A stretch of 64,000 nucleotides of DNA from Tepidisphaerales bacterium (lineage in GTDB: Bacteria; Planctomycetota; Phycisphaerae; Tepidisphaerales; Tepidisphaeraceae), in the NCBI GenBank assembly GCA_038244055.1, contig JBBRTW010000001.1:4291-68290 (forward strand). Direction: 5' to 3'. Positions 13,204 to 64,000 of the stretch are shown here, piece by piece. Within the stretch, counting starts at the first letter, position 1, and each line of letters starts with the position of its first letter. Both the position numbers and the translations under genes were made by a program. The notes beneath the pieces were generated by a model, which did not search any database, was not told the origin of the DNA, and saw only the letters and a program-made list of their open reading frames with translations.

Positions 13204-14169
<966 letters not shown>

Positions 14170-14170
14170 C

Positions 14171-14422
14171 ATGCGCAGTCTTGAAATCGCCAACTTGCCG
14201 GATGGAATGTACCAGCGAATCGAGGAACAAGCGGCGGCCCATGGAACAACGGTGAGCCAGGAAGCGGCTGAACTGTTAGCCAAGGCTCTCGCCGATGACG
14301 ATACTCGCGAAACGGAACTCCTGGCGGAACTTGCCGCCGGGCGGGCGGAACTCAAAGCCAAGGGAATTCCGTCCATCAGCGAAACCGAGATCCAAGACAT
14401 GAAGCAGTGGGGCCGCGAATGA
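14171..14422 (+). CDS. Type II antitoxin (FitA/VapB-like, ribbon-helix-helix)
   Basis: 83-aa ORF starting MRSLEIANLPDGMYQRIEEQAAAHGTTVSQEAAELL. Its stop overlaps the ATG of the downstream PIN gene (ATGA). Confidence 0.6.
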   Translation: MRSLEIANLPDGMYQRIEEQAAAHGTTVSQEAAELLAKALADDDTRETELLAELAAGRAELKAKGIPSISETEIQDMKQWGRE

Positions 14423-14826
14423 TTGTTGCGGACGCCAACCTGGTTGTGTATCTGCTCATCGACGGCGATTACACCCAAGCAGCGCATCAAGTTCGGAAAA
14501 GGAATCGTCCGTGGATGGTGCCTGCGCTGTTTCGAAGCGAACTGCTCAACGTTTTGTGTTCGCAAATGCGCATCTACGGCATGGAGCGCGATGACGCCCT
14601 GAAATTGTTTCAACGCGGCATGTCAATGGTTCAAGTTTCAGACGCCGCAGTTGATGCCGCCGGCGTCCTCAATTTGTGCAAGTCTTTGAAGTCCTCGAGT
14701 TATGACGCGGAATACGTCTTGCTTGCGGAATCGCTTGGCGTGCCTCTTGTCACGCAGGATGCCGCGCTTCTCCGCGCGGTTCCCAATATCGCAGTTTCCA
14801 TTGCTCAAGCGGCTGGTGCGACGTAA
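14419..14826 (+). CDS. vapC: PIN-domain toxin VapC
   Basis: MIVADANLVVYLL (first PIN Asp), ...SSYDAEYVLLAESLGVPLVTQD (distal acidic residues); about 135 aa. Confidence 0.7.
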   Translation: MIVADANLVVYLLIDGDYTQAAHQVRKRNRPWMVPALFRSELLNVLCSQMRIYGMERDDALKLFQRGMSMVQVSDAAVDAAGVLNLCKSLKSSSYDAEYVLLAESLGVPLVTQDAALLRAVPNIAVSIAQAAGAT

Positions 14827-14949
14827 TTCCAAATCTGGAATTCCCAACGCACGATCGCGGAGAATTGCGGGGAAGCCGGAAAGCCTTGATGACGCCGCCG
14901 ATTTGAAATTTCTAAAATTCATTGCTCTAGCATCACAAAAAGCCCACCC

Positions 14950-15618
14950 ATGACTCAATCCGAAATCCACCAAGCCAACACCGCTCTCGCCACCCAATCC
15001 CCCCTCGAAATCGTCCGCTGGGCCGTCACCCGCTCCGATGGCCGGGCCGTCGTCTCCACCAACTTCCGCCCCTACGAGGCCGTCATCCTCCATCTCGCCA
15101 CCCAGGTTCAGCTGGACATCCGCGTCCTCTGGGTTGATCACGGCTACAACAAACCCGCCACCTACCGGCACGGCGAAGAGCTGATCAAGCGTTTCAAGCT
15201 CAACGTGAGGCTCTATGTCCCGCGCATGACGGCCGCCCATTACGATGCGATCCACGGCGGCGCGCCCGAGCCGACCGCGGAAAATGAGGAGCGCATCAAG
15301 GCCTTCAGCACCGTCATGAAGCTCGAGCCCTTCCAGCGCGGCATGCGCGAACTCGCCCCCAGTGTCTGGCTGACCGCGCTGCGAAAAGTGCAAAACCCCA
15401 ACCGCGCCGGCATGGAAATCATCAGCGATGATCCCACTTTCAAGACGCTCAAAGTCAGCCCCGTTCTTAACTGGAACGACCAGCAGATGAACGAGTATTG
15501 CAAGCAGCATGACCTACCGGTCGAGTGGGACTACTTCGACCCCGCCAAGGCCGATGAAAAACGCGAATGCGGCCTGCACGCGGCGTGGGGCGGCAAGGCG
15601 GTTGCAAGCCAAGGCTAA
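14950..15618 (+). CDS. cysH: Phosphoadenosine/adenosine phosphosulfate reductase
   Basis: PAPS-reductase fold ORF with the C-terminal ECGLH signature (KRECGLHAAW). Confidence 0.85.
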   Translation: MTQSEIHQANTALATQSPLEIVRWAVTRSDGRAVVSTNFRPYEAVILHLATQVQLDIRVLWVDHGYNKPATYRHGEELIKRFKLNVRLYVPRMTAAHYDAIHGGAPEPTAENEERIKAFSTVMKLEPFQRGMRELAPSVWLTALRKVQNPNRAGMEIISDDPTFKTLKVSPVLNWNDQQMNEYCKQHDLPVEWDYFDPAKADEKRECGLHAAWGGKAVASQG

Positions 15619-15623
15619 CCAAG

Positions 15624-15890
15624 ATGGCGACTCGACGATTCAGCATCGCCCGCGTGATCATGGTCCTCAGCGCCCTGCTGGCGCTGGGGGCGCTGGCGGT
15701 GCTTGGGGTCTCGGCCTACGTGTTTGTCTTTCATTTGAAGGAGATGAACATGGAGGATGCGTCGATGACCAAGCGCATCTGTGCGATTTACGGTTGCCTG
15801 GCCGGGCTTTTCGCGGGTTGCTCGATCTTTTTGTATCTGAAGCTCTATCCCCGCAAGAGCCGGCAGCGCGGCTTCGACGTGATCCAATGA
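15624..15890 (+). CDS. Small two-TM membrane protein (hypothetical)
   Basis: 88-aa ORF with two hydrophobic helices. Its stop overlaps the ATG of the PHP gene (ATGA at 15887-15890). Confidence 0.4.
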   Translation: MATRRFSIARVIMVLSALLALGALAVLGVSAYVFVFHLKEMNMEDASMTKRICAIYGCLAGLFAGCSIFLYLKLYPRKSRQRGFDVIQ

Positions 15891-16756
15891 CGCGGCAGTT
15901 CGTCGACCTCCACTCCCACTCCACCGCCTCCGACGGCACATTCGCCCCCGCCGACGTCGTTCGCCTGGCCAAATCCGCCGGCCTGGTCGGCCTGGCCCTC
16001 ACCGATCACGACACCATCGCCGGCATTACCGAGGCCGCGGCTGAGGCCAAAAAGCTCGAGATCACCTTTATTCCCGGCATCGAAATCTCGGCCGTCCCGC
16101 CCATCGATAATGGCACGCTCCATATCCTCGGCTATTGCATCGATCCGCAAAGCCCCGCGCTGGCCGAAATGACCCGCAATCTCATCGATGCCCGCGACGA
16201 TCGCAATCCGAAGATCATCGCCCGACTGCGTGAGCTCGGAATCGTTATCACCATGGATGAAGCGGTCAACTACGCCCGCGGCGGCGTGCTTGGCCGGCCC
16301 CATATCGCCGCGCTTCTTATCCGCAAGGGCATCGTCAAGACCGTCAAGCAGGCCTTCGATGAGTATCTCGCCCCCGGCGGCAAGGCCTACTTCGACAAAG
16401 AGCGCCTCACCCCCCGCGCCGCCATCTCCCGCATTCGCCAGTCTGGCGGCCTGCCCGTTCTTGCCCACCCCGTCCAACTCCGCGCCACCAACCATGCCCA
16501 GCTCGATCGAGTCATCAAAGACCTTCTCGATCTCGGCCTGGCCGGGATCGAAGTCATCCACAGCGACCACTCCCAAGCCCTCGTCGATAAATACACCCGC
16601 CTGGCCGATCGCTACGGCCTGCTCAAAACTGGCGGCTCCGATTTCCATGGCGGCAACAAAAAAGACATCTCGCTTGGCACCGCCAATGGCCGGCGCATCC
16701 CCAGAAAATTCATGGATGACCTCCTCGCCCGCGCCGCGAACCCAGTCCGATTTTAG
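15887..16756 (+). CDS. PHP-domain phosphoesterase (TrpH/YciV-like)
   Basis: MTRQFVDLHSHSTASDG, LALTDHDT and GSDFHG motifs. The ORF-track start at 15509 is an implausible upstream extension. Confidence 0.85.
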   Translation: MTRQFVDLHSHSTASDGTFAPADVVRLAKSAGLVGLALTDHDTIAGITEAAAEAKKLEITFIPGIEISAVPPIDNGTLHILGYCIDPQSPALAEMTRNLIDARDDRNPKIIARLRELGIVITMDEAVNYARGGVLGRPHIAALLIRKGIVKTVKQAFDEYLAPGGKAYFDKERLTPRAAISRIRQSGGLPVLAHPVQLRATNHAQLDRVIKDLLDLGLAGIEVIHSDHSQALVDKYTRLADRYGLLKTGGSDFHGGNKKDISLGTANGRRIPRKFMDDLLARAANPVRF

Positions 16757-16833
16757 CCGCTCCGCTTGCGGAGCGCGTCCATCGGCGCACCAACCCGATC
16801 AGTCGGAGCATGATGGAGAATTGGAATTCAGAT

Positions 16834-18957
16834 TCATCGCATATCGCGGGCGCCAGCGGCGTTGGGATCCAGACGCAGGACAAAGACCTGGCTCTTGGCA
16901 TCCACCGCCCAAAACAGATGCCGCTTGTTATCGTGCATCAGGCCAAGCGAAACATTTCGGCCTTTGACTCCGCTGGGGTCGTCGCCGGTGATTTTCAGCG
17001 AGATCCAGCGACCGGCGGCCGGGTCGAAGGCGGGCGTTCGGCGAACACCGCTTTCATCGGCGGGCAGTGTGCATCCGGCCAGGACCAGGTCGTGATCGGG
17101 GTCGTAGCGGAGCTGGCAGAGATAGGAGATGGAAGCCGCCGCGGGGGCGTTGGCCGGCTCGATCCGGCTGGCTTCGAGGGTTTTCATGTCCAGCGCGTGG
17201 ACGATGCCGTCAAAGGGATGCGTGTCCCCGTATTCCTTGCGGACCATCAGGAGGCGATCGCGCTTGGAGTCATAGGTCATCGTTGAATTGTCGACGCGCG
17301 AGCCGGGCAATTTCGCGCCGGTGACTTTCAGCCGGAGCCATTCGCGCTTGCTCGCATCGAAGCGGAAGATCGCGCCGTCCTTGGTCCAGCAGGCGATACC
17401 GGCCGGCGTCGGGCAGAGCGTCAGGTCGTAGAAGCAATCGCCATGATCCATCCCTTTGGGTTTGGGGGCGCGCGAACTCCAGTCAGCGCGGTCGGGGTCG
17501 TAGAAGTAGGAATGGGTTCGTCGGCCGGTGAAGATCATTTGCTTGATGAGCGGTTCGTAGGCGTAACTTTGATAGGAATGGCCGGTGATCCAGGGGCGCC
17601 GATTCAGGTTGTAGCCATCGGGATATTCTGTGTTTGAATAGGTCTGGCCCAGCGGGAACTCAACCGGAAAAGGGAGCTCCCAGCGGCCGGTGGCCAGATG
17701 AAAGTGAAGCACATCCGAGCCGCCATGCGCGCAGTGCCCACCGGAAAAGCGCAGGATCTGATCGCGATCCACATCCAGCACTGCCGTTCCCCAGTCGCGA
17801 TTCACCTGCGGTAACTGCGGAGGTTTGATGGCGACCCAGGTGTTGGCGGGCAGATTACCGAGGCGCTGTTGAAACGCCTGCGCATCCGGAACGGGGTCCT
17901 TCAGGAAAAAGTCCGGATGAAATGCGCCGGTGCGATACTGACGCGTATCGGCCTCGGCGAGTGCATCGGGCGCGGAACTGCTCCAGCGGTCGGCGGCGAT
18001 GTCGTAGGTGAATTCGCCATCGGCGCGGTTGATGTACTGGCCGCCCATGTAGTCGGTGTTGTTGGCGTACTGGTAGCCGCCGCTGAGTTTGACCGTGCCA
18101 TCGCCGGCGGCGGTCAGTGCATGGTTCGCGCGAGGCGGCGGGGCGGTTGGTGGCTGGCGGCAGGTCCAGGCGCGGGAGTTGGGGTCGAAGGCCCAGGTGT
18201 CGCTCGTCACATAGTCGCAGTGGTCGCCGCCGAACAGAATGTAGAGGCCGGTTTTGCGATCGAAGACAATTGGGCTGAGGGTGCGGGCGGGAGGCTCCGC
18301 ATCCAGAGGCTCGGCCGCCTGTTCGAGCGCGCGCTGAATTTCCCACATCGCGTGCATCGATTCAGCATTGAGATCTTCACCCAGTGACTTTTCGACATCC
18401 GCGGACTGCCGCGCTACGGCCACCAGCCTAAGCACGCTACGATCGCGCCGGACCGCATCGCCGCCGTTGAGGGTTTCGCCCTTCAAACCCGCTTCGAGCG
18501 ATGAAACGTCTTTGGCGATTTGGGATTGGGCGGGTAGGAGCTGATTTCTGGCCGCTGCCTCCCGGCGCTCGGCCGGAAATCCCTGGAACCATGCCGAGCG
18601 CGCCTGCGCGAGAAGTTTCGCCTGATCGATTGCCGCCTTCACGCAGAGGTCATGGTATCCCTGCAGCTTGTTCGCCTTGCGCAGGTCGGAACCGATCGGC
18701 GTCCATTTGCCGCCTTCCAGAATCCGCGTTCCGGCCCGGCCATCTTCGGCCGACTGGTCCTGTCCGCCAAAGGCCAGTCCAGCGCCATCCGGGCCTTCGG
18801 CGGACGCGCCCCAGATGATCGGCTCGTGAAGATTCACCCCGGGCAGGCGGTAGGGTTTGGGTTTTGCCTCGGCCGCGCTTGCCGGGCGCTGCGCGGCGAT
18901 CGCCGCGACGAGAATGATCGAGAACACAAACGATGCCGTCCTGACCGGTTTTGCCAT
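16834..18957 (-). CDS. Secreted hypothetical protein, possible Kelch-like beta-propeller
   Basis: Signal peptide (MAKPVRTASFVFSIILVAAIAAQRPASA). Repeated GG..., W.F/W motifs (FGGDHCDY..DTWAFDP, FSGGHCAHGG). The functional assignment is weak. Confidence 0.4.
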   Translation of the reverse strand: MAKPVRTASFVFSIILVAAIAAQRPASAAEAKPKPYRLPGVNLHEPIIWGASAEGPDGAGLAFGGQDQSAEDGRAGTRILEGGKWTPIGSDLRKANKLQGYHDLCVKAAIDQAKLLAQARSAWFQGFPAERREAAARNQLLPAQSQIAKDVSSLEAGLKGETLNGGDAVRRDRSVLRLVAVARQSADVEKSLGEDLNAESMHAMWEIQRALEQAAEPLDAEPPARTLSPIVFDRKTGLYILFGGDHCDYVTSDTWAFDPNSRAWTCRQPPTAPPPRANHALTAAGDGTVKLSGGYQYANNTDYMGGQYINRADGEFTYDIAADRWSSSAPDALAEADTRQYRTGAFHPDFFLKDPVPDAQAFQQRLGNLPANTWVAIKPPQLPQVNRDWGTAVLDVDRDQILRFSGGHCAHGGSDVLHFHLATGRWELPFPVEFPLGQTYSNTEYPDGYNLNRRPWITGHSYQSYAYEPLIKQMIFTGRRTHSYFYDPDRADWSSRAPKPKGMDHGDCFYDLTLCPTPAGIACWTKDGAIFRFDASKREWLRLKVTGAKLPGSRVDNSTMTYDSKRDRLLMVRKEYGDTHPFDGIVHALDMKTLEASRIEPANAPAAASISYLCQLRYDPDHDLVLAGCTLPADESGVRRTPAFDPAAGRWISLKITGDDPSGVKGRNVSLGLMHDNKRHLFWAVDAKSQVFVLRLDPNAAGARDMR

Positions 18958-19108
18958 GGGCGATTCCTCCGCGAGAGATGGGCCTGAATGGCTATACCGG
19001 ATTGGCGGCCGAGTGTGGCGGGGGCGGGAGGAGTGCGAGGGGTGAGTAGCGCGCCTGCGCGGATTGAACGTCGGCCATGATGTTCATCGGGCGCAGTCGT
19101 CAGCCGCG

Positions 19109-57141: not shown

Positions 57142-57487
57142 CGTGTGATTCACCGTCAGCCTTAATTCTCGGCCGTCCCTATGCGCCGGCGTTGCGACCG
57201 GGTACAGGTTGCCGAGAGTACACTAAAACCCCATCTCCCGCCTCGTTTGGATCAACTGCCGCTGGATGTGAACACGCAGGGAATTTCGCCAAGGCAACCG
57301 GCACCGATGCCGCAATTTCCCTGCCCGATGAGACCAATCCAGCGCGAATGCTTGTGCCAACGCTTCGCCACAGCATCGGTTGAGATTACCGGCGAGCCCA
57401 ATCTACATAGCCTGCGGCAGGGTTGACCGCCGGGCCGATGGTGAGGAAAACACTGTAAAACAAGGGGAAAATGATCAATTGGCAGGG

Positions 57488-57736
57488 ATGGGCAGGACTG
57501 AGGAAACAAAGCGGGCGAAGGGGGTCGAACCCTCGACAAACCCGCTGGATTCTGCTGGAAAAGTGACTGCTTTTGACCTGGGTGGCGTGAAAGCGGCACT
57601 CGGAGAATTGGCGGAGTGCCCAATTGACCCCGACTTGACCGACGTGGCGAACGCCTGGCCGACACTGCCGGCCGCGCTCCGGGCGGGCATCGTGGCGATG
57701 GTGAATGCATCGGCCAGCAACGGGGTCAAGCCATGA
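57488..57736 (+). CDS. Small hypothetical protein (island-associated)
   Basis: The ORF ends with ...LTDVANAWPTLPAALRAGIVAMVNAS. The start is very uncertain (ATG 57380, ATG 57488 or GTG 57563). The stop overlaps the next ATG (ATGA at 57733). Confidence 0.35.
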   Translation: MGRTEETKRAKGVEPSTNPLDSAGKVTAFDLGGVKAALGELAECPIDPDLTDVANAWPTLPAALRAGIVAMVNASASNGVKP

Positions 57737-58281
57737 GTAAAGCATCAAGCCGGGGTAACGTCTTTTCAGCAGGCCATGCGCCGCCTCCAGCCTTGTTCGA
57801 TATCAAGCTCCTGGCGTTCATCCAGAAGCGCGGCGGGCGCGTCAGCGTTCGGGAGCTTTCCCGGAGCCTGGCTACCTGCCGCCATGCCGCAGATGCCCGA
57901 AGCCGTCTGGAGGCCCTGGTGGACGCCGGCATCGGCAACTGGACCTATCTCCGTCCTGGCGCCAAAGGCGGACGGCCGGCTCGGCTGTTCATCCTGACGA
58001 TTGGGCCTGGTGCGGTCGAGCCGCTGGTCATGGCGGCCAGGCAGGCATCGACGGTGCGGGGTAGCGCATACACTCGACTGATTGCCCGCGACACGGTGCG
58101 ATTCTTGAACCGCTTCGGCTGCGTGCCCTGCCGGCAAATCTCCGAGGCGCTCTCCCAAGTAACTCGCGCCTTGGACAAAGTTTCGCTCGACGACTTCCCC
58201 GCCCCCATGTTTCGCCGAACCATCCGGATGACCGCCCGAGGAAGTTTCAGCGTTGAATGGGTCAATGTGAGCCCATGGTAA
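57733..58281 (+). CDS. Hypothetical protein with probable winged-helix N-terminal domain
   Basis: LLAFIQKRGGRVSVRELSRSLA...EALVDAGIG...GGRPARLFIL is a wHTH-like pattern. It is translationally coupled to the upstream small ORF. Confidence 0.45.
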   Translation: MSKASSRGNVFSAGHAPPPALFDIKLLAFIQKRGGRVSVRELSRSLATCRHAADARSRLEALVDAGIGNWTYLRPGAKGGRPARLFILTIGPGAVEPLVMAARQASTVRGSAYTRLIARDTVRFLNRFGCVPCRQISEALSQVTRALDKVSLDDFPAPMFRRTIRMTARGSFSVEWVNVSPW

Positions 58282-58598: not shown

Positions 58599-59444
58599 TT
58601 GTGTCGCATGGGTATGGCGGACGATAATCCATCCATCAATTCGAAACACTTCTCGAAGGGAAGAGCGATGCCCAGCACACCCGCCGCCAAACGTTCACCG
58701 ATTAAACAACCTTCGCGTCCGCAGGCCGGCGAAAGTTTGATGCACCAGCGCAATATGCGGTTGCTGGACATCGCCTATTTCGTCTTCCTCCCCGCGATCT
58801 TCATCATGCTCGCGGCTTTTGAGTGGCTCCGATACTGGTTCCGGGTCCCGGTTTCGCCCTGGATTCTCACCATCACGGCGTTGGTCGTCGCCACCTACTC
58901 TGCAATCCGGGGCCGAAGGATCTGGCGCGGTTTGGCCGCGCTGGAGCTCGGCCTTCGCGGCGAACGAACCGTGGGCCAGCGTTTGGAGGAGTTGCGGGCA
59001 ATGGGCTATCACGTCTTCCACGACCTGTGCGAGGACGCCTGGAATATCGACCATGTGCTGGTCGGCCCCGGCGGCGTCTTCGCGGTGGAAACCAAGACGA
59101 TTTCCAAGCCTAATGACCATGATGCCAAGGTGACCCACGACGGCGAAAAGCTCCTGGTTGATGGCTTTGAGCTCGACCGCGATCCACTCAAGCAGGCGAC
59201 GGCGGCCGCCCGCCATGTGCAGAAGGTTCTGCGAGAGCAGACGGGCCAGGATGTGAAGGTCCAAGCCGTGGTGGTATTCCCCGGATGGTTTGTCGAAGGA
59301 ACTTCACGCAGCGCGGATGTGTATGTTTCCAATGACAACTATCTGATGAAGCGATTCGAAAACGAGGGCGGTCGCCAGGTCCTCGACCCGCGCGACGTGG
59401 ATCTTTACGCGGCGGGAATCGATCGGTATCAGCGACGTACGTGA
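58599..59444 (+). CDS. Membrane-anchored NERD (nuclease-related domain) protein
   Basis: Two TM helices (LLDIAYFVFLPAIFIMLAAF, ILTITALVVATYSAI) are followed by GYHVFHDLCEDAWNIDHVLVGPGGVFAVETKT. The start is ambiguous among several Met codons. Confidence 0.72.
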   Translation: MCRMGMADDNPSINSKHFSKGRAMPSTPAAKRSPIKQPSRPQAGESLMHQRNMRLLDIAYFVFLPAIFIMLAAFEWLRYWFRVPVSPWILTITALVVATYSAIRGRRIWRGLAALELGLRGERTVGQRLEELRAMGYHVFHDLCEDAWNIDHVLVGPGGVFAVETKTISKPNDHDAKVTHDGEKLLVDGFELDRDPLKQATAAARHVQKVLREQTGQDVKVQAVVVFPGWFVEGTSRSADVYVSNDNYLMKRFENEGGRQVLDPRDVDLYAAGIDRYQRRT

Positions 59445-59455
59445 TGGGCAGAGCG

Positions 59456-60097
59456 CTATCCCAAGGGTTTGAATAGCAGTTCCGTACCGATGGTCTTGAT
59501 CAGCTCATTGAGGTAGGAGTCGATGTATTGCAGGCATTGCGCCTGATCGGTCGAGCCGACTTCCGAAAAGACCACCCGTAAAGTCGTGTGTTTATCGCGG
59601 ACTGCGGCGAACGCCGCGGCGGTTGCCTGCACGCCATCTGCGGTCACTAGGAGGCGCAATACTGCTTCGAGGCAGACGATGCGACAGCGCAGCGCATCCC
59701 GCACGGCCTGGAGGGTGGGGGCCGCCGCCAACGCCCGCATCGCGCGTTTGTCGCCCGAGGCTATGTAATAGGCGGGGTTCTCGGCCGCCAGTGCCAGGAG
59801 CAGGGCCTCGCCTTCATCAATCGCTTCGACTTCGTTAAGGAGTTGGAAGAGCGCATCGTCGGCGGGACGGTCAATCAGGGGCGCAATGCCGTTGCACTCG
59901 GCGACCGCCTTTCGTCGCACGGCATCGCTATAGTTCTTCTTAAAAGCCTTCCCCCGGTCGAGCTGGTGCGGCAGCGCCTCCAGCCGGCGAATGTTCCCGT
60001 CCTCCACCCCCAGCAGCGCGGCGACGCGTCCGATCAACCCGGCCGAGGCCAGGAGGATGAAGATATCGGAGTCAATGATGAGCAGCCGGTCTGCCAT
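59456..60097 (-). CDS. PIN-like domain protein (putative nuclease) with C-terminal extension
   Basis: LLIIDSDIF (Asp9/Asp11), EAIDEGEALLLALA and YIASGDKRA give a PIN-type acidic pattern. AAGGA lies 7 nt upstream of the ATG, and only 12 nt separate it from the upstream gene. Confidence 0.5.
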   Translation of the reverse strand: MADRLLIIDSDIFILLASAGLIGRVAALLGVEDGNIRRLEALPHQLDRGKAFKKNYSDAVRRKAVAECNGIAPLIDRPADDALFQLLNEVEAIDEGEALLLALAAENPAYYIASGDKRAMRALAAAPTLQAVRDALRCRIVCLEAVLRLLVTADGVQATAAAFAAVRDKHTTLRVVFSEVGSTDQAQCLQYIDSYLNELIKTIGTELLFKPLG

Positions 60098-60109
60098 CCC
60101 CGTCCTTTC

Positions 60110-61183
60110 TCAATCACAGGAATCGCCAATGGATAGACACGAGAGGAACCGGGCGGACGACTCGGGAAGGTCACCCATGTCGACGTGCCGCTTCAAATGC
60201 TCGGCGATGATGGCATGGGCGCCGGCATCTTCTCCCAGCGTCTGGAGCGCCAACTGACCTGGCCCCCAGCGATTGGCGGAGCGTGCATAGACTAAGGCGA
60301 CAGTGCCAGCAGCCACACCATTCTCAGCGCCCCAGCGCTGGGCGGCTTTGGCAAGCTTGGCGGCGGTCAGCCCCCACTCGGGGCGGAACCCCGGCTTCTC
60401 CTGCCCAGTCAAAACCTTATTGGCAAAGGCGTCCGCCTGCTTCTCCTGGGCGTCATCATCAACGCGGTCAATATCGGCATCCACGAGGGGTGCTTCGCCC
60501 GGATTGACATGTCCCAGGAACAGGTGCCCCATCTCGTGAGCCAGGTGGAAGGCAAGCCACGGCGGACTTTGCTTCACCGAACCCAGGACAATCACCGGGA
60601 CATTGCCACAGTAGAGCGCCAAGCCGGCAAACTTCTTTGCCGCCCGGGGAAGGCGCTCGGGAAGAACGTGGAACACGACAATTCCGCTCCGCCAGGCGAA
60701 GGTCAGAAGCGATGCCAGATCGACGGCTGGTGCATCGGCCAAGATGTGCCCCCGCACCTTTTCCGCCACTACAGACCCGCCGAAGGGCGCAGGAGCCGTC
60801 GTATGCGCGACAACCAGCGCTGCCAGGCGCTGCGCGATGTGGACGGCGGGGCGCAACTCCTCGGCGGGCACGTTTTTATGCCGCTTCAGGCGAAAAGAGC
60901 CGATTGCGGGCACGGGCAGGGCGCGCTTTGGATCACGCAGTTCGGCGATCTTGAAGCCTAATTGTTTGGCGATCGCGGCCTCGGCCAGCGCGCGATTGGC
61001 GGGCACGGCGGCGAGCTTGTCTTCCCACCAGTCGGGTAGCACGACCCCTTTCAGAAACGCGGCGTCAAAGCCGCGTTCCTTTAGGCGGTCGTACAGATCC
61101 TGCATGGGCTTGGCGTTCTGGATGATGGCTCTCCTTGGCGTGGTAGGCATGAATTGTAGCATGCCGGCCGCGCCCTCGCACAT
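60110..61183 (-). CDS. ImmA/IrrE-family (COG2856) HEXXH metallopeptidase
   Basis: LAFHLAHEMGHLFLGH plus downstream EKQADAFANKVL is typical of the family. The start is ambiguous (61183, 61162 or 61105). Confidence 0.72.
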   Translation of the reverse strand: MCEGAAGMLQFMPTTPRRAIIQNAKPMQDLYDRLKERGFDAAFLKGVVLPDWWEDKLAAVPANRALAEAAIAKQLGFKIAELRDPKRALPVPAIGSFRLKRHKNVPAEELRPAVHIAQRLAALVVAHTTAPAPFGGSVVAEKVRGHILADAPAVDLASLLTFAWRSGIVVFHVLPERLPRAAKKFAGLALYCGNVPVIVLGSVKQSPPWLAFHLAHEMGHLFLGHVNPGEAPLVDADIDRVDDDAQEKQADAFANKVLTGQEKPGFRPEWGLTAAKLAKAAQRWGAENGVAAGTVALVYARSANRWGPGQLALQTLGEDAGAHAIIAEHLKRHVDMGDLPESSARFLSCLSIGDSCD

Positions 61184-61266: not shown

Positions 61267-62361
61267 CTAGCGCCGAGTGGCCGACGCGAGGCTCTGGACG
61301 TAATGCCAAGGACATTCCCGGATTGCCTTCCTCGTCCGGGCTCGGTGCTTGACCCACCACGCCACGAGCGACACTGCGATCCCGATTCCTGCCAAGACCG
61401 GAGCGAAGACGGTCCCGGCAACTGTGGCAGCGCCCGCAGCCGCCATGGCGGGCGTCGAAATTGCCAGTGCCGACACCCCCGTCTCAATCCGGGCCTCTCG
61501 CAATGCCTTGCGGTGGTCGCGGATCGCCGATTTGATTTCGCCCCGTTTCTGCACAATGAAGTCCTCGATCGCAGCCGGGTCCTTCAGTTCGGCGCAGCCT
61601 ACGCCCAACGCCTCGACCGCCTCACGAAAGCGGCGGCGCTCATCGGCCCGTCTTTCTCGGAAATCGAGTATCTGGCGCATGGTCAGATTGGCGACTGAAT
61701 CCGCTGTCGGGAATTCGATCCCCAGCCGCAGCAGGAACGACCGTCTTACCGCCTCGCCGTCACACTCTTCCGGGAGCGCGTCGGCGTGCAAGAGGTACTC
61801 GCCCCCAGGCGCGACACGGGGGACGTCGGTCACCATGGGACAGCCCATTTCCCGCGACATCACGGTGGCGAGGCACGCCATGTAGCCCGCGCTGAGGTCG
61901 ACCGCCATTCTCATCCAGTCACCGCGTTTCTCTGCACGACCGCTCCTCAATAAAAGATCTCGCAGTTCCTCGCTCATTTTGCTGCTGTACACGTAATCCG
62001 CACCCCTCCTATTGGCGAACGTGCCCCACATGGTCGCCGACTGTTCGGATTCCCGATTCGCCCAAGGCAGTACCCGCGCCTTGAAAAGCTCCGCCGCAGC
62101 GACGGCGTAATCCCGGGGATCGCCGGTGAGGAGGCATCCGGCCCCGGCGGCCTGATTCACCTCCTTCGAGTCCCGCACCTCGAATCTGAGGGCGTTCGGG
62201 ACGATCCGCCGCACCCGCTCCCAATACAGCAAGCTAGATTTAAGCCAACCAAGGTCTGGTTTGAGATTCGGATAATAAAGTGCGGTGCCGGCTTCCGTTC
62301 TGAACCGCACCGGCGCACTCTCCTCCGCTTCGTCCAATGGTCTTCTCGTCGTCATGGCCAT
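61267..62361 (-). CDS. DUF6236-like protein with C-terminal transmembrane segment
   Basis: ALYYPNLKPDLGWLKSSLLYWERVRRIVP near the N-terminus resembles what I recall of DUF6236. The C-terminal hydrophobic stretch is AGTVFAPVLAGIGIAVSLVAWWV. A strong AAGGAG SD is present, and the gene starts 17 nt after the methyltransferase stop. Confidence 0.5.
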   Translation of the reverse strand: MAMTTRRPLDEAEESAPVRFRTEAGTALYYPNLKPDLGWLKSSLLYWERVRRIVPNALRFEVRDSKEVNQAAGAGCLLTGDPRDYAVAAAELFKARVLPWANRESEQSATMWGTFANRRGADYVYSSKMSEELRDLLLRSGRAEKRGDWMRMAVDLSAGYMACLATVMSREMGCPMVTDVPRVAPGGEYLLHADALPEECDGEAVRRSFLLRLGIEFPTADSVANLTMRQILDFRERRADERRRFREAVEALGVGCAELKDPAAIEDFIVQKRGEIKSAIRDHRKALREARIETGVSALAISTPAMAAAGAATVAGTVFAPVLAGIGIAVSLVAWWVKHRARTRKAIRECPWHYVQSLASATRR

Positions 62362-62378: not shown

Positions 62379-64000
62379 CTATTTCCCCACCGCGTACACC
62401 TTGAGTACCTCGTCCCCGTAATGATTGATCACCTTCACCGCGATCTTCCCCGACGCGGGCCGGGGGAACGGGCGGCTCCTGGTCTGGTACAGGTCGGCCC
62501 AGGCCGATTCATCCACCTCAGCGCGCAGGGCTTTCTTGAGCTTCTCATAGGGCTCATCCGCCCCGGTGAAATAGGCGTGGCGGACGAAGAAGCTCTCATC
62601 GTTGTAGTTGGTGTCGATAAACCAGCAGGCGATGTCATCGGTGGAGTTGGAGCGAATCTCCCCCGTGGTGGGGTCATAGACGTCCAGGCCGCGAATCTCG
62701 GCCACCAGCATTCCCTCGGGCACATCCGGGTCGTAGCGGACCGCTCCGGCGTCGGCGGCGGGCTTTTTCCCTTTGGCGGCGGCAGCGCCGGCCGGCTTAT
62801 CGCCGGAGAGGATCGCCACATCCGGCTCGCCGAAAACCATGAAGAGATTCCCCGCCCCGGTCTTCTTGAGCAGCTCATCCCCCATCGACAAATCCGGGTT
62901 CATCTTGACCGACAAAACCGTGAGCTTGCCGTACCGTTTGGCCTCCTCCGCTACGTGTGGGTCAAAGGCGAAGCCGCAGACCAGCAGGATGTCGAACCCG
63001 ACCCCCTTCACCGTCTCCATGGCCGCATCCTTGACCAGCCGCGGCTCGACCGTGCCGAACTCCGGGCCGATGCAGATCGCGGCCCGGCGGGGCTTGCCGT
63101 CGGCGTCCGCGTACCGCCCCTCGCCGCAGATCCACTCGCCCGGGTAAATCTCGACCGAGTCGAACTTCAGCCGCTGGCTCTTGACCGTGTTCTGCACCCC
63201 CGCCTTCTTGAGGTTCTCCAGCATGGTGTTGGTGAAGTCGCTCCCGGCGAGCATCTTCATCGTGAAGCCCAGGTCGGTCGGCTTGTTGGCCGCCCGCTCC
63301 TTGGCCTCGACACTGATCGTCCGGTGCGGGGAGAGGCTCTCGACAGTGAACGGCCCGGCGACGCGCAGGCGGCCGGCGTCGGCGTAGGGCTTGTCGAAGA
63401 GGGTCTCGGTATCGGCGTGTTTGGCGATCGCGGCGTCGATCTCGCGGCGGGTCATGCCCTCTTTAATGTCCGGGTTGTTGGCGATGGATTTGAGCGTGAC
63501 ATGGGGGACGCGCTGGTAGACGAAGCCCTTGCGCACGTCGCCGTCGAATGCCGCGGAAGGATTCACCACGGAGGACACGGAGGGCACGGAGGCGGACAAC
63601 TCGGCTTCCTTCTTGCGGCCCTCGGGAGAGTCGGAGAGGAGGTAGTACGGGAAGCGGGCGCACATCAGGCGAGTGCGGGCGAGGGCCAGGGCAACGCGGC
63701 TTGTGTCGGTAGTGATCCAGCGACGGCCCCATTGCTCGGCGACATAGGCAGTCGTGCCGCTACCACAAGTGGGATCGAGGACGAGATCGCCGGGGTCGGT
63801 GGTCATCATGATGCAGCGTTCCACCACCTTCACTGATGTTTCGACGACGTACCGCTTGTCACTCGCAAATCCGGCAACGACGGTATCAGCCCAAAGATCG
63901 CTGATCGGCATGGCCGGGAAGTCATTGATAAACCTTACGTAATACAGTCCCCCACTAGTCGCCTCCAGGCGCCTCGCGGCGAGCAATTTCGTCATGCCGG
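62379..64000 (-). CDS. Site-specific DNA methyltransferase, beta-class N6A/N4C (Mod-like), 5'-truncated by the window edge
   Basis: AdoMet motif I is LVLDPTCGSGTTAYVAEQWGRRWITTD. A long C-terminal domain ends ...KIAVKVINHYGDEVLKVY, as in large Mod-type enzymes. The catalytic (D/N)PP(Y/F) motif is expected beyond 64000. Confidence 0.82.
   Translation of the reverse strand, partial: GMTKLLAARRLEATSGGLYYVRFINDFPAMPISDLWADTVVAGFASDKRYVVETSVKVVERCIMMTTDPGDLVLDPTCGSGTTAYVAEQWGRRWITTDTSRVALALARTRLMCARFPYYLLSDSPEGRKKEAELSASVPSVSSVVNPSAAFDGDVRKGFVYQRVPHVTLKSIANNPDIKEGMTRREIDAAIAKHADTETLFDKPYADAGRLRVAGPFTVESLSPHRTISVEAKERAANKPTDLGFTMKMLAGSDFTNTMLENLKKAGVQNTVKSQRLKFDSVEIYPGEWICGEGRYADADGKPRRAAICIGPEFGTVEPRLVKDAAMETVKGVGFDILLVCGFAFDPHVAEEAKRYGKLTVLSVKMNPDLSMGDELLKKTGAGNLFMVFGEPDVAILSGDKPAGAAAAKGKKPAADAGAVRYDPDVPEGMLVAEIRGLDVYDPTTGEIRSNSTDDIACWFIDTNYNDESFFVRHAYFTGADEPYEKLKKALRAEVDESAWADLYQTRSRPFPRPASGKIAVKVINHYGDEVLKVYAVGK

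Follow-up and report, generated by a model that had tools for sequence, protein, structure and literature searches.

Organization of the locus

The window considered here is a stretch of 64,000 nucleotides (nt) from a Tepidisphaerales bacterium (contig JBBRTW010000001.1, assembly GCA_038244055.1), and its subject is a pair of adjacent genes, the first encoding a predicted ImmA/IrrE-type zinc protease of the Peptidase_M78 family and the second a PIN-like protein. The pair is an uncharacterized and unnamed variant, without a helix-turn-helix (HTH) component, of an already known protease-PIN architecture. The two open reading frames (ORFs) are present on the minus strand at 60110-61183 (357 amino acids, aa) and 59456-60097 (213 aa). 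The 12-nt spacer between them, at 60098-60109, reads GAAAGGACGGGG on the coding strand and contains a Shine-Dalgarno (SD)-like GAAAGGA, the AAGGA of which lies 6-7 nt before the ATG; its length and SD-like site are consistent with translational coupling of the protease and PIN-like genes. The ORF coordinates, the 12-nt spacing and the SD site in the spacer were all found as the original prediction for this DNA had given them, and the motifs that it named were located at residues 216-220 of the protease (HEMGH) and at residues 7-11 (IIDSD), 94-98 (DEGEA) and 114-119 (SGDKRA) of the PIN-like protein. The features of the pair are as follows:

60110..61183, minus strand: ImmA/IrrE-type Peptidase_M78 gene; longest ORF 357 aa; homologue start M27 at nt 61105, giving 331 aa
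60926..61105, minus strand: protease N-terminal helical domain; first ~60 residues of the 331-aa form, with the invariant LPDWWED motif
60386..60793, minus strand: M78 catalytic core; HEMGH at nt 60524-60538, with downstream Glu247 in QEKQADAFA
60113..60385, minus strand: protease C-terminal all-helical domain, ~90 aa
60098..60109, minus strand: spacer, 12 nt, GAAAGGACGGGG, with SD-like AAGGA
59456..60097, minus strand: PIN-like protein gene, 213 aa; predicted PIN core at about residues 1-150 with a helical insert, and a C-terminal helical extension at residues 155-205

At least 131 homologues of the protease were found, with expectation values (E) down to 1e-123. For the 213-aa protein a word-indexed search returned 19 homologues, and a profile built from these matched 1,692 cluster representatives (clustered at 50% identity) at E ≤ 1e-3, and 1,285 at E ≤ 1e-10. 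Judged by these homologue numbers for each protein, both ORFs are real genes rather than chance reading frames. Nearly all homologues of the protease begin at the equivalent of M27 (MxDLYxRLK; MQDLYDRLK in the window), so the actual start is probably at nt 61105 and the product 331 aa in length; the longest ORF does have the 357 codons originally ascribed to the peptidase, and it is the size of the protein that probably has to be reduced. Scans of the locus gave no sigma-70 promoter match, no tRNA and no shift in GC content, and terminator-like sites occurred at chance level.

The upstream gene encodes a predicted zinc protease

Residues 194-285 of the protease match the Pfam family Peptidase_M78 (PF06114) at 29.4 bits, above the gathering score of 22. 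Residue conservation and co-divergence were computed on 77 complete pairs from related loci, in which mean identity is 34% among the proteases and 29% among the nucleases. Across this set the residues H216, E217 and H220 of the HEMGH motif (216-220) are kept in 77/77 loci, as is E247 in the downstream QEKQADAFA (family motif QExxADxFA). The ImmA/IrrE identity first assigned to this gene is thus borne out both by the family score and by the invariant HExxH and glutamate, and the upstream gene product is predicted to be a catalytically competent ImmA/IrrE (M78) zinc protease.

An AlphaFold2 (AF2) model of the protease has a predicted local distance difference test score (pLDDT) of 93.3, and the top Foldseek match in the Protein Data Bank (PDB) is CapP (7t5t; probability 0.99, E 0.016), followed by PrpR of Mycobacterium tuberculosis (6cyj), the structural likeness in both cases being confined to the M78 core. 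Together the family alignment and the model divide the protein into an N-terminal helical domain, the M78 core and a C-terminal helical domain of ~90 aa. The stretch of about 200 aa at the N-terminus, to which the original prediction could assign no function, comprises a conserved ~100-aa domain, whose LPxWW motif is invariant (P50, W52 and W53 kept in 77/77 loci), and the start of the M78 core near residue 131. The N-terminal domain is modeled as five short helices; neither Pfam, scanned with 31 N-terminal segments, nor a profile search of PDB sequences gave a match to it. The C-terminal helices (residues 248-326) are modeled at high confidence and the domain that they form is conserved across the family; a Pfam scan gave it no family assignment, and we consider it a candidate partner-binding or neutralizing domain. 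Matches of the protease to the PADLOC models of RmrA, CapP and PD-Lambda-2_B, and to the NCBIfam spr1629 antitoxin model, are weak and local.

The downstream gene encodes a PIN-like protein

As a single sequence, the 213-aa protein matches no model in Pfam, NCBIfam or PADLOC. Among 60 diverse members of its family, three give sub-threshold matches to PIN or PIN_3 (E 0.015-0.05), and a search of PDB sequences with a 60-sequence profile found no PIN domain. Assignment to a known family was therefore rejected, the Pfam, NCBIfam, PADLOC and PDB sequence searches being empty for the single sequence and the 60-sequence profile. Membership of DUF4411 (PF14367) was rejected in the same way, with 0/60 family members matching at E ≤ 1, which upholds the view that this pair differs from the ImmA/IrrE-DUF4411 pairs.

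The predicted structure is more informative. The AF2 model (pLDDT 93.9, predicted TM score 0.90) finds its best Foldseek matches in the PDB among PIN/VapC proteins, namely 1v8o (probability 0.99, target-normalized TM score 0.64), 6a7v, 2fe1, 3h87 and 5k8j, and a library of viral structures, whose matches were otherwise weak, yielded FEN-type exonucleases and a PIN-domain protein. Six acidic residues are conserved: D9 and D116 in 77/77 loci, D11 in 76/77, E97 in 75/77, and D94 and E144 in 73/77 each. In the model D9 and D11 follow strand 1, E97 stands at the start of a helix, D116 follows strand 3 and E144 follows strand 4, the places that catalytic residues occupy in PIN proteins. Both a predicted fold closest to VapC/PIN and near-invariant acids (D9, D11, E97 and D116 among them) are therefore in place, as the first reading of this protein as PIN-type had supposed, where the lack of either would have counted against it. 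We describe the 213-aa protein as PIN-like by its modeled fold and active-site pattern and not by membership of a sequence family; the support for the fold is moderate because the Foldseek E-values are weak. On this footing the downstream gene product is predicted to be a PIN-like, metal-dependent nuclease.

Pairing and co-divergence of the two genes

Genome searches were seeded with the protease alignment and with a narrow alignment of the nuclease, broader nuclease alignments being too variable for this purpose. The protease-seeded scan, reduced to one genome per species, yielded 80 loci, 72 of which have enough downstream DNA to be judged. In 69/72 of these, which come from at least 10 phyla including Planctomycetota, Verrucomicrobiota, Acidobacteriota, Cyanobacteriota, Pseudomonadota (with Pseudomonas, Enterobacter and Leclercia), Actinomycetota and Chloroflexota, the protease gene is followed immediately by a PIN-like gene in the same orientation; in two of the three exceptions the protease gene is itself truncated. 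Conversely, the protease gene is directly upstream in 6/6 and 12/12 assessable nuclease-seeded loci (18/18). Co-occurrence outside this genome, which had been put forward as a check on the pair, is thus seen from both directions.

Over 81 loci the median distance between the two genes is 12 nt, with extremes of -23 and +31. When pairwise identities are arranged as one matrix per protein, the two matrices correlate (r = 0.88, Mantel p ≤ 0.001). Given the strict pairing, the conservation of residues and this co-divergence, the pair is passed on and diverges as a single unit, and selection acts on both catalytic sites. The family has the generic features of type II toxin-antitoxin systems, being a tight bicistron that is co-inherited, patchily distributed and found in variable neighborhoods.

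Where pairs decay, they do so in one direction. An intact protease gene stands beside remnants of a PIN gene in two loci (L013 and L041) and beside a split PIN gene in three (L011, L014 and L096), and the reverse, an intact PIN gene with a degraded protease gene, was not seen in the loci examined. This asymmetry fits a nuclease that is the toxic partner, and is a weak supporting point for it.

The missing XRE partner

No HTH gene adjoins the pair in the window, and the flanks leave no room for one. A cryptic XRE-type HTH within the five-helix N-terminus of the protease was considered and gained no support: neither Pfam nor the PDB profile search gave an HTH match there, and hhalign against an XRE alignment returned a probability of 5.9%, so we refer to this domain as not detectably HTH. 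Related loci were screened with a small XRE hidden Markov model, built from nine sequences, a screen that covers the XRE fold as distinct from non-XRE DNA-binding folds; a match lies within 1.5 kb of the pair in 4/101 loci, and 97/101 have none. The absence of an adjacent HTH gene, on which the original prediction had remarked, therefore extends from the window to most of its relatives.

The four loci with a match differ in arrangement. In L064 (1312-2481) a canonical XRE domain is fused in frame ahead of the LPxWW domain, in L074 and L086 (9654-9986) a separate 110-aa XRE-like ORF lies just upstream of the pair, and in L034 (11736-12137) an XRE gene lies just downstream. These members look like evolutionary intermediates to the classical three-component systems. 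The family is related to the classical XRE-protease-PIN systems, and its large majority, including the window, has dispensed with the XRE component; because a few members keep it, the pair in the window is an HTH-less derivative and not a separate invention.

Genomic context of related pairs

Besides the pair itself, no neighboring gene family is conserved among the loci. Variable flanks of this kind fit what would be expected of a mobile, self-sufficient cassette. Genes of defense systems nevertheless recur beside it, among them SNF2/PLD helicases, GmrSD, type I components and AbiEii-type ATPases. In nine loci (L001, L005, L006, L007, L010, L011, L016, L068 and L102; for example L001:1939-9473) the pair is nested, with gaps of 11-23 nt, between a gene for a ResIII helicase of ~1,010 aa and a type III-like Mod gene, an order that we write as Res-M78-PIN-Mod. 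We use the label "type III-like" rather than "type III" because the helicase carries Pfam ResIII and one weak PADLOC match to REase_III only, and the host restriction system of these relatives may itself be an atypical type III-like system. Embedding between Res and Mod is confined to a subclade of the family. It includes the closest homologue of the protease (L102, 60% identity), where the operon is followed at 13315-18993 by an ApeA-NTD/HEPN protein, an Mrr-type nuclease and CTD7/MC3-domain proteins, and where genes for an integrase, a serine recombinase and Mu Gam border the locus; this is a dense defense island on a mobile element.

Two further arrangements place the pair beside known systems. 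In L015 (964-10048) the DISARM gene drmD lies directly upstream (PADLOC, 1,096 bits) and a 1,360-aa gene downstream. One gene of the pooled downstream set matches DrmMI at E = 0; this is probably the 1,360-aa gene of L015, which would put the pair inside a DISARM operon. In L059 (11605-12663) and L065 (11555-12646) the gene immediately after the PIN-like gene, in the same orientation, encodes a full-length homologue of PD-Lambda-2_C (Pfam Beta_protein); this three-gene arrangement ties the family to PD-lambda-2. Embedding inside defense operons predicts a defense function (Payne 2024, 10.1101/2024.01.29.577857).

The pair is also carried by 4 of 5,426 complete Escherichia coli genomes, where RefSeq names its products "ImmA/IrrE family metallo-endopeptidase" and "hypothetical protein". 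In E. coli ET565 (NZ_CP100944.1; L087:12001-13664), where the protease is WP_033817166.1 and the PIN-like protein WP_001747379.1, a P2-like prophage carries the pair, with the replication endonuclease/DinI-like genes on one side and the portal gene on the other. The P2 site between those genes is defense hotspot #1, which holds old, tin and many newer systems (PMC9519451). A DUF4041 gene adjoins the integrase of the same prophage, and DUF4041 has been reported in defense (Vassallo 2022, PMC9519451). The protease and the PIN-like protein match, over their full lengths, the PHROG families phrog_18577 and phrog_15597, both labeled "unknown function"; the pair is further found on a cyanobacterial plasmid, and some copies lie beside integrases or recombinases. 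Searches with tblastn returned nothing for the window nuclease in the phage or plasmid collections, and for its E. coli homologue nothing in the phage collection and five weak matches only in the plasmid collection.

Comparison with known systems

Pairing of a COG2856/DUF955 protease with a PIN-like toxin has been reported before (Makarova 2009, PMC2701414; Matelska 2017, PMC5499597; Ernits 2023, PMC10440598), and since the order of an ImmA/IrrE protease followed by a PIN protein is in the literature, the present finding is not categorically new. The original prediction overstated how unusual the pair is: protease-PIN pairings have been described since 2009, and RosmerTA and PD-lambda-2 are validated architectural relatives. 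It had held that assignment to a named system would count against it, and PADLOC v2.0.0 assigns no system to the pair or to the PIN-like gene. Literature and accession searches found no paper naming this pair, and the NetFlax supplements do not contain the E. coli accessions.

The nearest relatives are the three-component XRE-COG2856-PIN modules (with DUF4411, COG2405, PIN_14, PIN_20 or PIN_26), in which the same zinc protease lies directly upstream of a PIN-like gene and which are likewise mobile and patchy; the rare members of our family that keep an XRE component (L064, L074, L086 and L034) share this feature with them. Unlike these modules, the window has no HTH component, its protease bears the family-specific LPxWW N-terminus, and its PIN-like partner falls outside DUF4411 and Pfam. 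The PIN-like family may coincide with cluster PIN_14 of Matelska 2017, PIN_14, PIN_20 and PIN_26 being defined in supplementary data only.

RosmerTA (RmrT/RmrA; Millman 2022, Ernits 2023) is also a two-gene system with one Peptidase_M78 protein and a variable partner. It has a role in defense and is carried on phages, and its ImmA (D25) antitoxin node associates with PIN-like domains (Ernits 2023, PMC10440598). Against 13 RmrA models, however, the window protease aligns only locally around HExxH, over 60-110 of ~380 residues at E ≥ 1.5e-6 (best match E 1.5e-6, residues 194-261 against profile positions 192-253 of 394), and the 213-aa protein has no RmrT match in PADLOC. An N-terminal HTH, usual in RmrA proteins (PMC10440598), is not detected in the window protease. 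PADLOC would not call the window locus RosmerTA.

PD-lambda-2 (Vassallo 2022, PMC9519451) likewise combines an M78 peptidase, of the Xre type, with a co-operonic toxin-like RNase in a toxin-antitoxin-like abortive infection system on mobile elements of E. coli. Its RNase is HigB-like and encoded upstream, whereas the partner here is PIN-like and downstream, and its peptidase carries an HTH domain. In the window there is no match to component A, a marginal match to component B (E 1.6e-4) and no match to component C, a homologue of which occurs only in L059 and L065.

The M78 fold and HExxH...E site are shared with the CapP/CapH, ImmA/ImmR and IrrE/DdrO pairs, CapP (7t5t) being the best structural match; CapP, ImmA and IrrE cleave an XRE-type repressor to de-repress genes, whereas here the conserved partner is nuclease-like and there is no repressor. 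With VapBC the pair has in common a PIN-fold toxin-like protein with four conserved acidic residues, encoded as the second gene of a tight bicistron. The VapBC antitoxin is a small DNA-binding protein, while here its place is taken by a 331-aa metalloprotease; the PIN-like protein, at 213 aa, is longer than its VapBC counterpart and carries an insert as well as a C-terminal extension. Finally, the placement of the pair between Res and Mod and beside DrmD resembles that of embedded defense genes such as PrrC in EcoprrI and the HEC and PDC genes of Payne 2024 (10.1101/2024.01.29.577857), while the pair matches no HEC or PDC model in PADLOC v2.0.0. What is distinctive is thus that the pair fails the sequence definitions of RosmerTA, PD-lambda-2, DUF4411 and all PADLOC systems, that it has no HTH component, and that its protease has an N-terminal domain with an invariant LPxWW motif.

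Proposed mechanism and alternatives

On balance we think it moderately probable that the two genes make up a stand-alone, horizontally mobile module of the toxin-antitoxin or abortive-infection type, in which the protease silences the nuclease and which serves in anti-phage defense. The protease protein would bind the nuclease and hold it inactive, acting as both antitoxin and sensor, like RmrA in RosmerTA. A phage- or stress-derived cue would switch on proteolysis that cuts either an inhibitory segment within the complex or the protease protein itself, and the released nuclease would degrade RNA (possibly DNA), arresting the infected cell. Complex formation, the identity of the toxic partner, the trigger and the substrate of the nuclease are proposed here by precedent. 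In RosmerTA a zinc-peptidase antitoxin is combined with variable toxins (10.1101/2022.05.11.491447; PMC10440598), and for COG2856-PIN operons a toxin-antitoxin function has been predicted (PMC2701414; PMC5499597).

Several observations weigh against this reading. No PIN sequence model passes threshold in Pfam for the 60 members of the 213-aa family, and the structural likeness to PIN proteins is moderate, with Foldseek E-values ≥ 0.14 and a query-normalized TM score of 0.44. The split PIN genes that contribute to the asymmetric decay may be assembly errors in metagenome-assembled genomes. Many of the flanking genes are housekeeping genes, and the flanks as a whole range from these to transposases. 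The window has no visible Res gene, its Mod gene running off the window end, and its order, Mod-DUF6236-M78-PIN, differs from that of the relatives. In PD-lambda-2, moreover, the Xre-peptidase was the toxic component and was neutralized by the "toxin-like" HigB (PMC9519451), so that the assignment of roles here could likewise be reversed.

In such a reversal the toxic activity would belong to the M78 protein, through cleavage of an essential protein of the host or the phage, with the PIN-like protein as its neutralizer or sensor, as in PD-lambda-2 B/A. Beyond the toxicity of the PD-lambda-2 Xre-peptidase when alone and its rescue by the upstream HigB-like protein (PMC9519451), the PD-Lambda-2_C homologue that follows the pair in L059 and L065 and the weak PD-Lambda-2_B match (E 1.6e-4) point this way. 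Near-invariant PIN acidic residues would, however, be unexpected in a mere neutralizer, in three loci (L013, L041 and L060) the protease gene is intact although the PIN gene is degraded or absent, and the order of a large gene followed by a small nuclease gene matches the antitoxin-toxin order of VapBC-type modules (PMC5499597); we consider the reversal very unlikely. Unlikely, to a lesser degree, is a zymogen arrangement, in which the PIN-like protein would be made inactive and the protease would activate it on a trigger by cutting the C-terminal extension (~60-70 aa) or the insert. The conservation of the protease site in 77/77 loci implies that proteolysis matters, 97/101 loci offer no HTH repressor as a substrate, the conserved C-terminal extension and helical insert are absent from canonical VapC, and ImmA, IrrE and CapP act by site-specific cleavage of a partner (PMC2701414; PMC10440598), all of which would suit such an arrangement. 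Yet if the nuclease did no harm until cleaved, selection would not account for the asymmetric decay; no motif for a cleavage site was found; and the zinc peptidases of RosmerTA act as antitoxins, a deletion of rmrA having proved unobtainable (10.1101/2022.05.11.491447).

A role outside defense, as a regulatory or addiction cassette of mobile elements working either as an ImmA-like anti-repressor switch or as a plain post-segregational-killing toxin-antitoxin pair, is suggested by the regulatory pairs ImmA/ImmR and IrrE/DdrO (PMC2701414), by the occurrence of the pair on prophages and small cyanobacterial plasmids and beside integrases and recombinases, and by the many housekeeping flanks. It has little probability in our view: 97/101 loci encode no repressor substrate alongside, the unconserved flanks leave no fixed element to regulate, and the pair is placed repeatedly in restriction/DISARM operons and in the P2 defense hotspot. 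With its large family, its lost repressor, its nesting in Res-Mod and DISARM operons and its place in the P2 hotspot, the pair is a good candidate for a new defense system. A bolder form of the defense reading, which we hold to be quite unlikely, would have the pair be an unnamed and widespread anti-phage system (at least 1,285 clusters at 50% identity) in which the protease senses infection directly, with no repressor as intermediary, and which, when nested between Res and Mod or beside DrmD, would act as a PrrC-like back-up that fires once a phage anti-restriction factor has disabled the host restriction system.

A protease-PIN pair resembling a toxin-antitoxin system would not by itself surprise a specialist, and should the pair prove an ordinary one the gain would be limited to annotation and a new PIN-like family model. 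It is nonetheless a large cross-phylum protease-nuclease family in which both partners are uncharacterized and the nuclease has no Pfam or PADLOC model, and the natural E. coli representative in the P2 hotspot makes it directly testable. Because it lacks the XRE substrate, the family is an uncomplicated setting in which to ask what an ImmA-type protease cuts and responds to without a repressor, and the copies nested in restriction and DISARM operons allow layered or "guard" immunity to be tested.

Neighboring genes in the window

On the minus strand of the window, Mod, which runs off the window end, is followed by a DUF6236-like gene and then by the genes of the protease and the PIN-like protein, with a NERD-domain gene converging on the pair:

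62379..64000, minus strand: type III-like Mod, C-terminal 538 aa, cut by the window end (PADLOC and Pfam)
61267..62361, minus strand: DUF6236-like gene, 364 aa, with a C-terminal hydrophobic helix (Pfam)
58599..59444, plus strand: NERD-domain gene, 281 aa, convergent, with N-terminal hydrophobic helices (Pfam)

The Mod fragment matches PADLOC MTase_III (PDLC03632; E 7e-173, 575 bits) and Pfam N6_N4_Mtase, and has homologues in the Mod genes beside the pair in L001, L006, L010, L011 and L068; in the relatives Mod follows the pair, but here it precedes it. Upstream of the protease gene, 83-161 nt separate it from the 364-aa DUF6236-like gene, whose Pfam match (27.8 bits against a cut-off of 26.2) covers the C-terminal third only. 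This gene has no homologue in ~100 related loci and, on that comparison, is an insertion specific to this genome. It is wedged between Mod, at a gap of 17 nt, and the protease gene, and could be an embedded defense candidate in its own right.

On the other side, the stop codon of the NERD gene lies 11 nt from that of the PIN-like gene. Its product matches Pfam NERD with 66.4 bits and, weakly, the NCBIfam model of the N-terminus of the MADS MAD6 kinase (E 0.001); it is probably a separate defense gene of the same island. Beyond it lies a plus-strand ORF of 182 aa (57733-58281), to which no family could be assigned and which has a sub-threshold match to DUF6187. In a stretch of ~550 nt that adjoins it (57150-57730) just short overlapping ORFs are listed, and the 182-aa ORF lies at the left edge of the apparent island, whose boundary is marked by neither a tRNA nor a GC shift.

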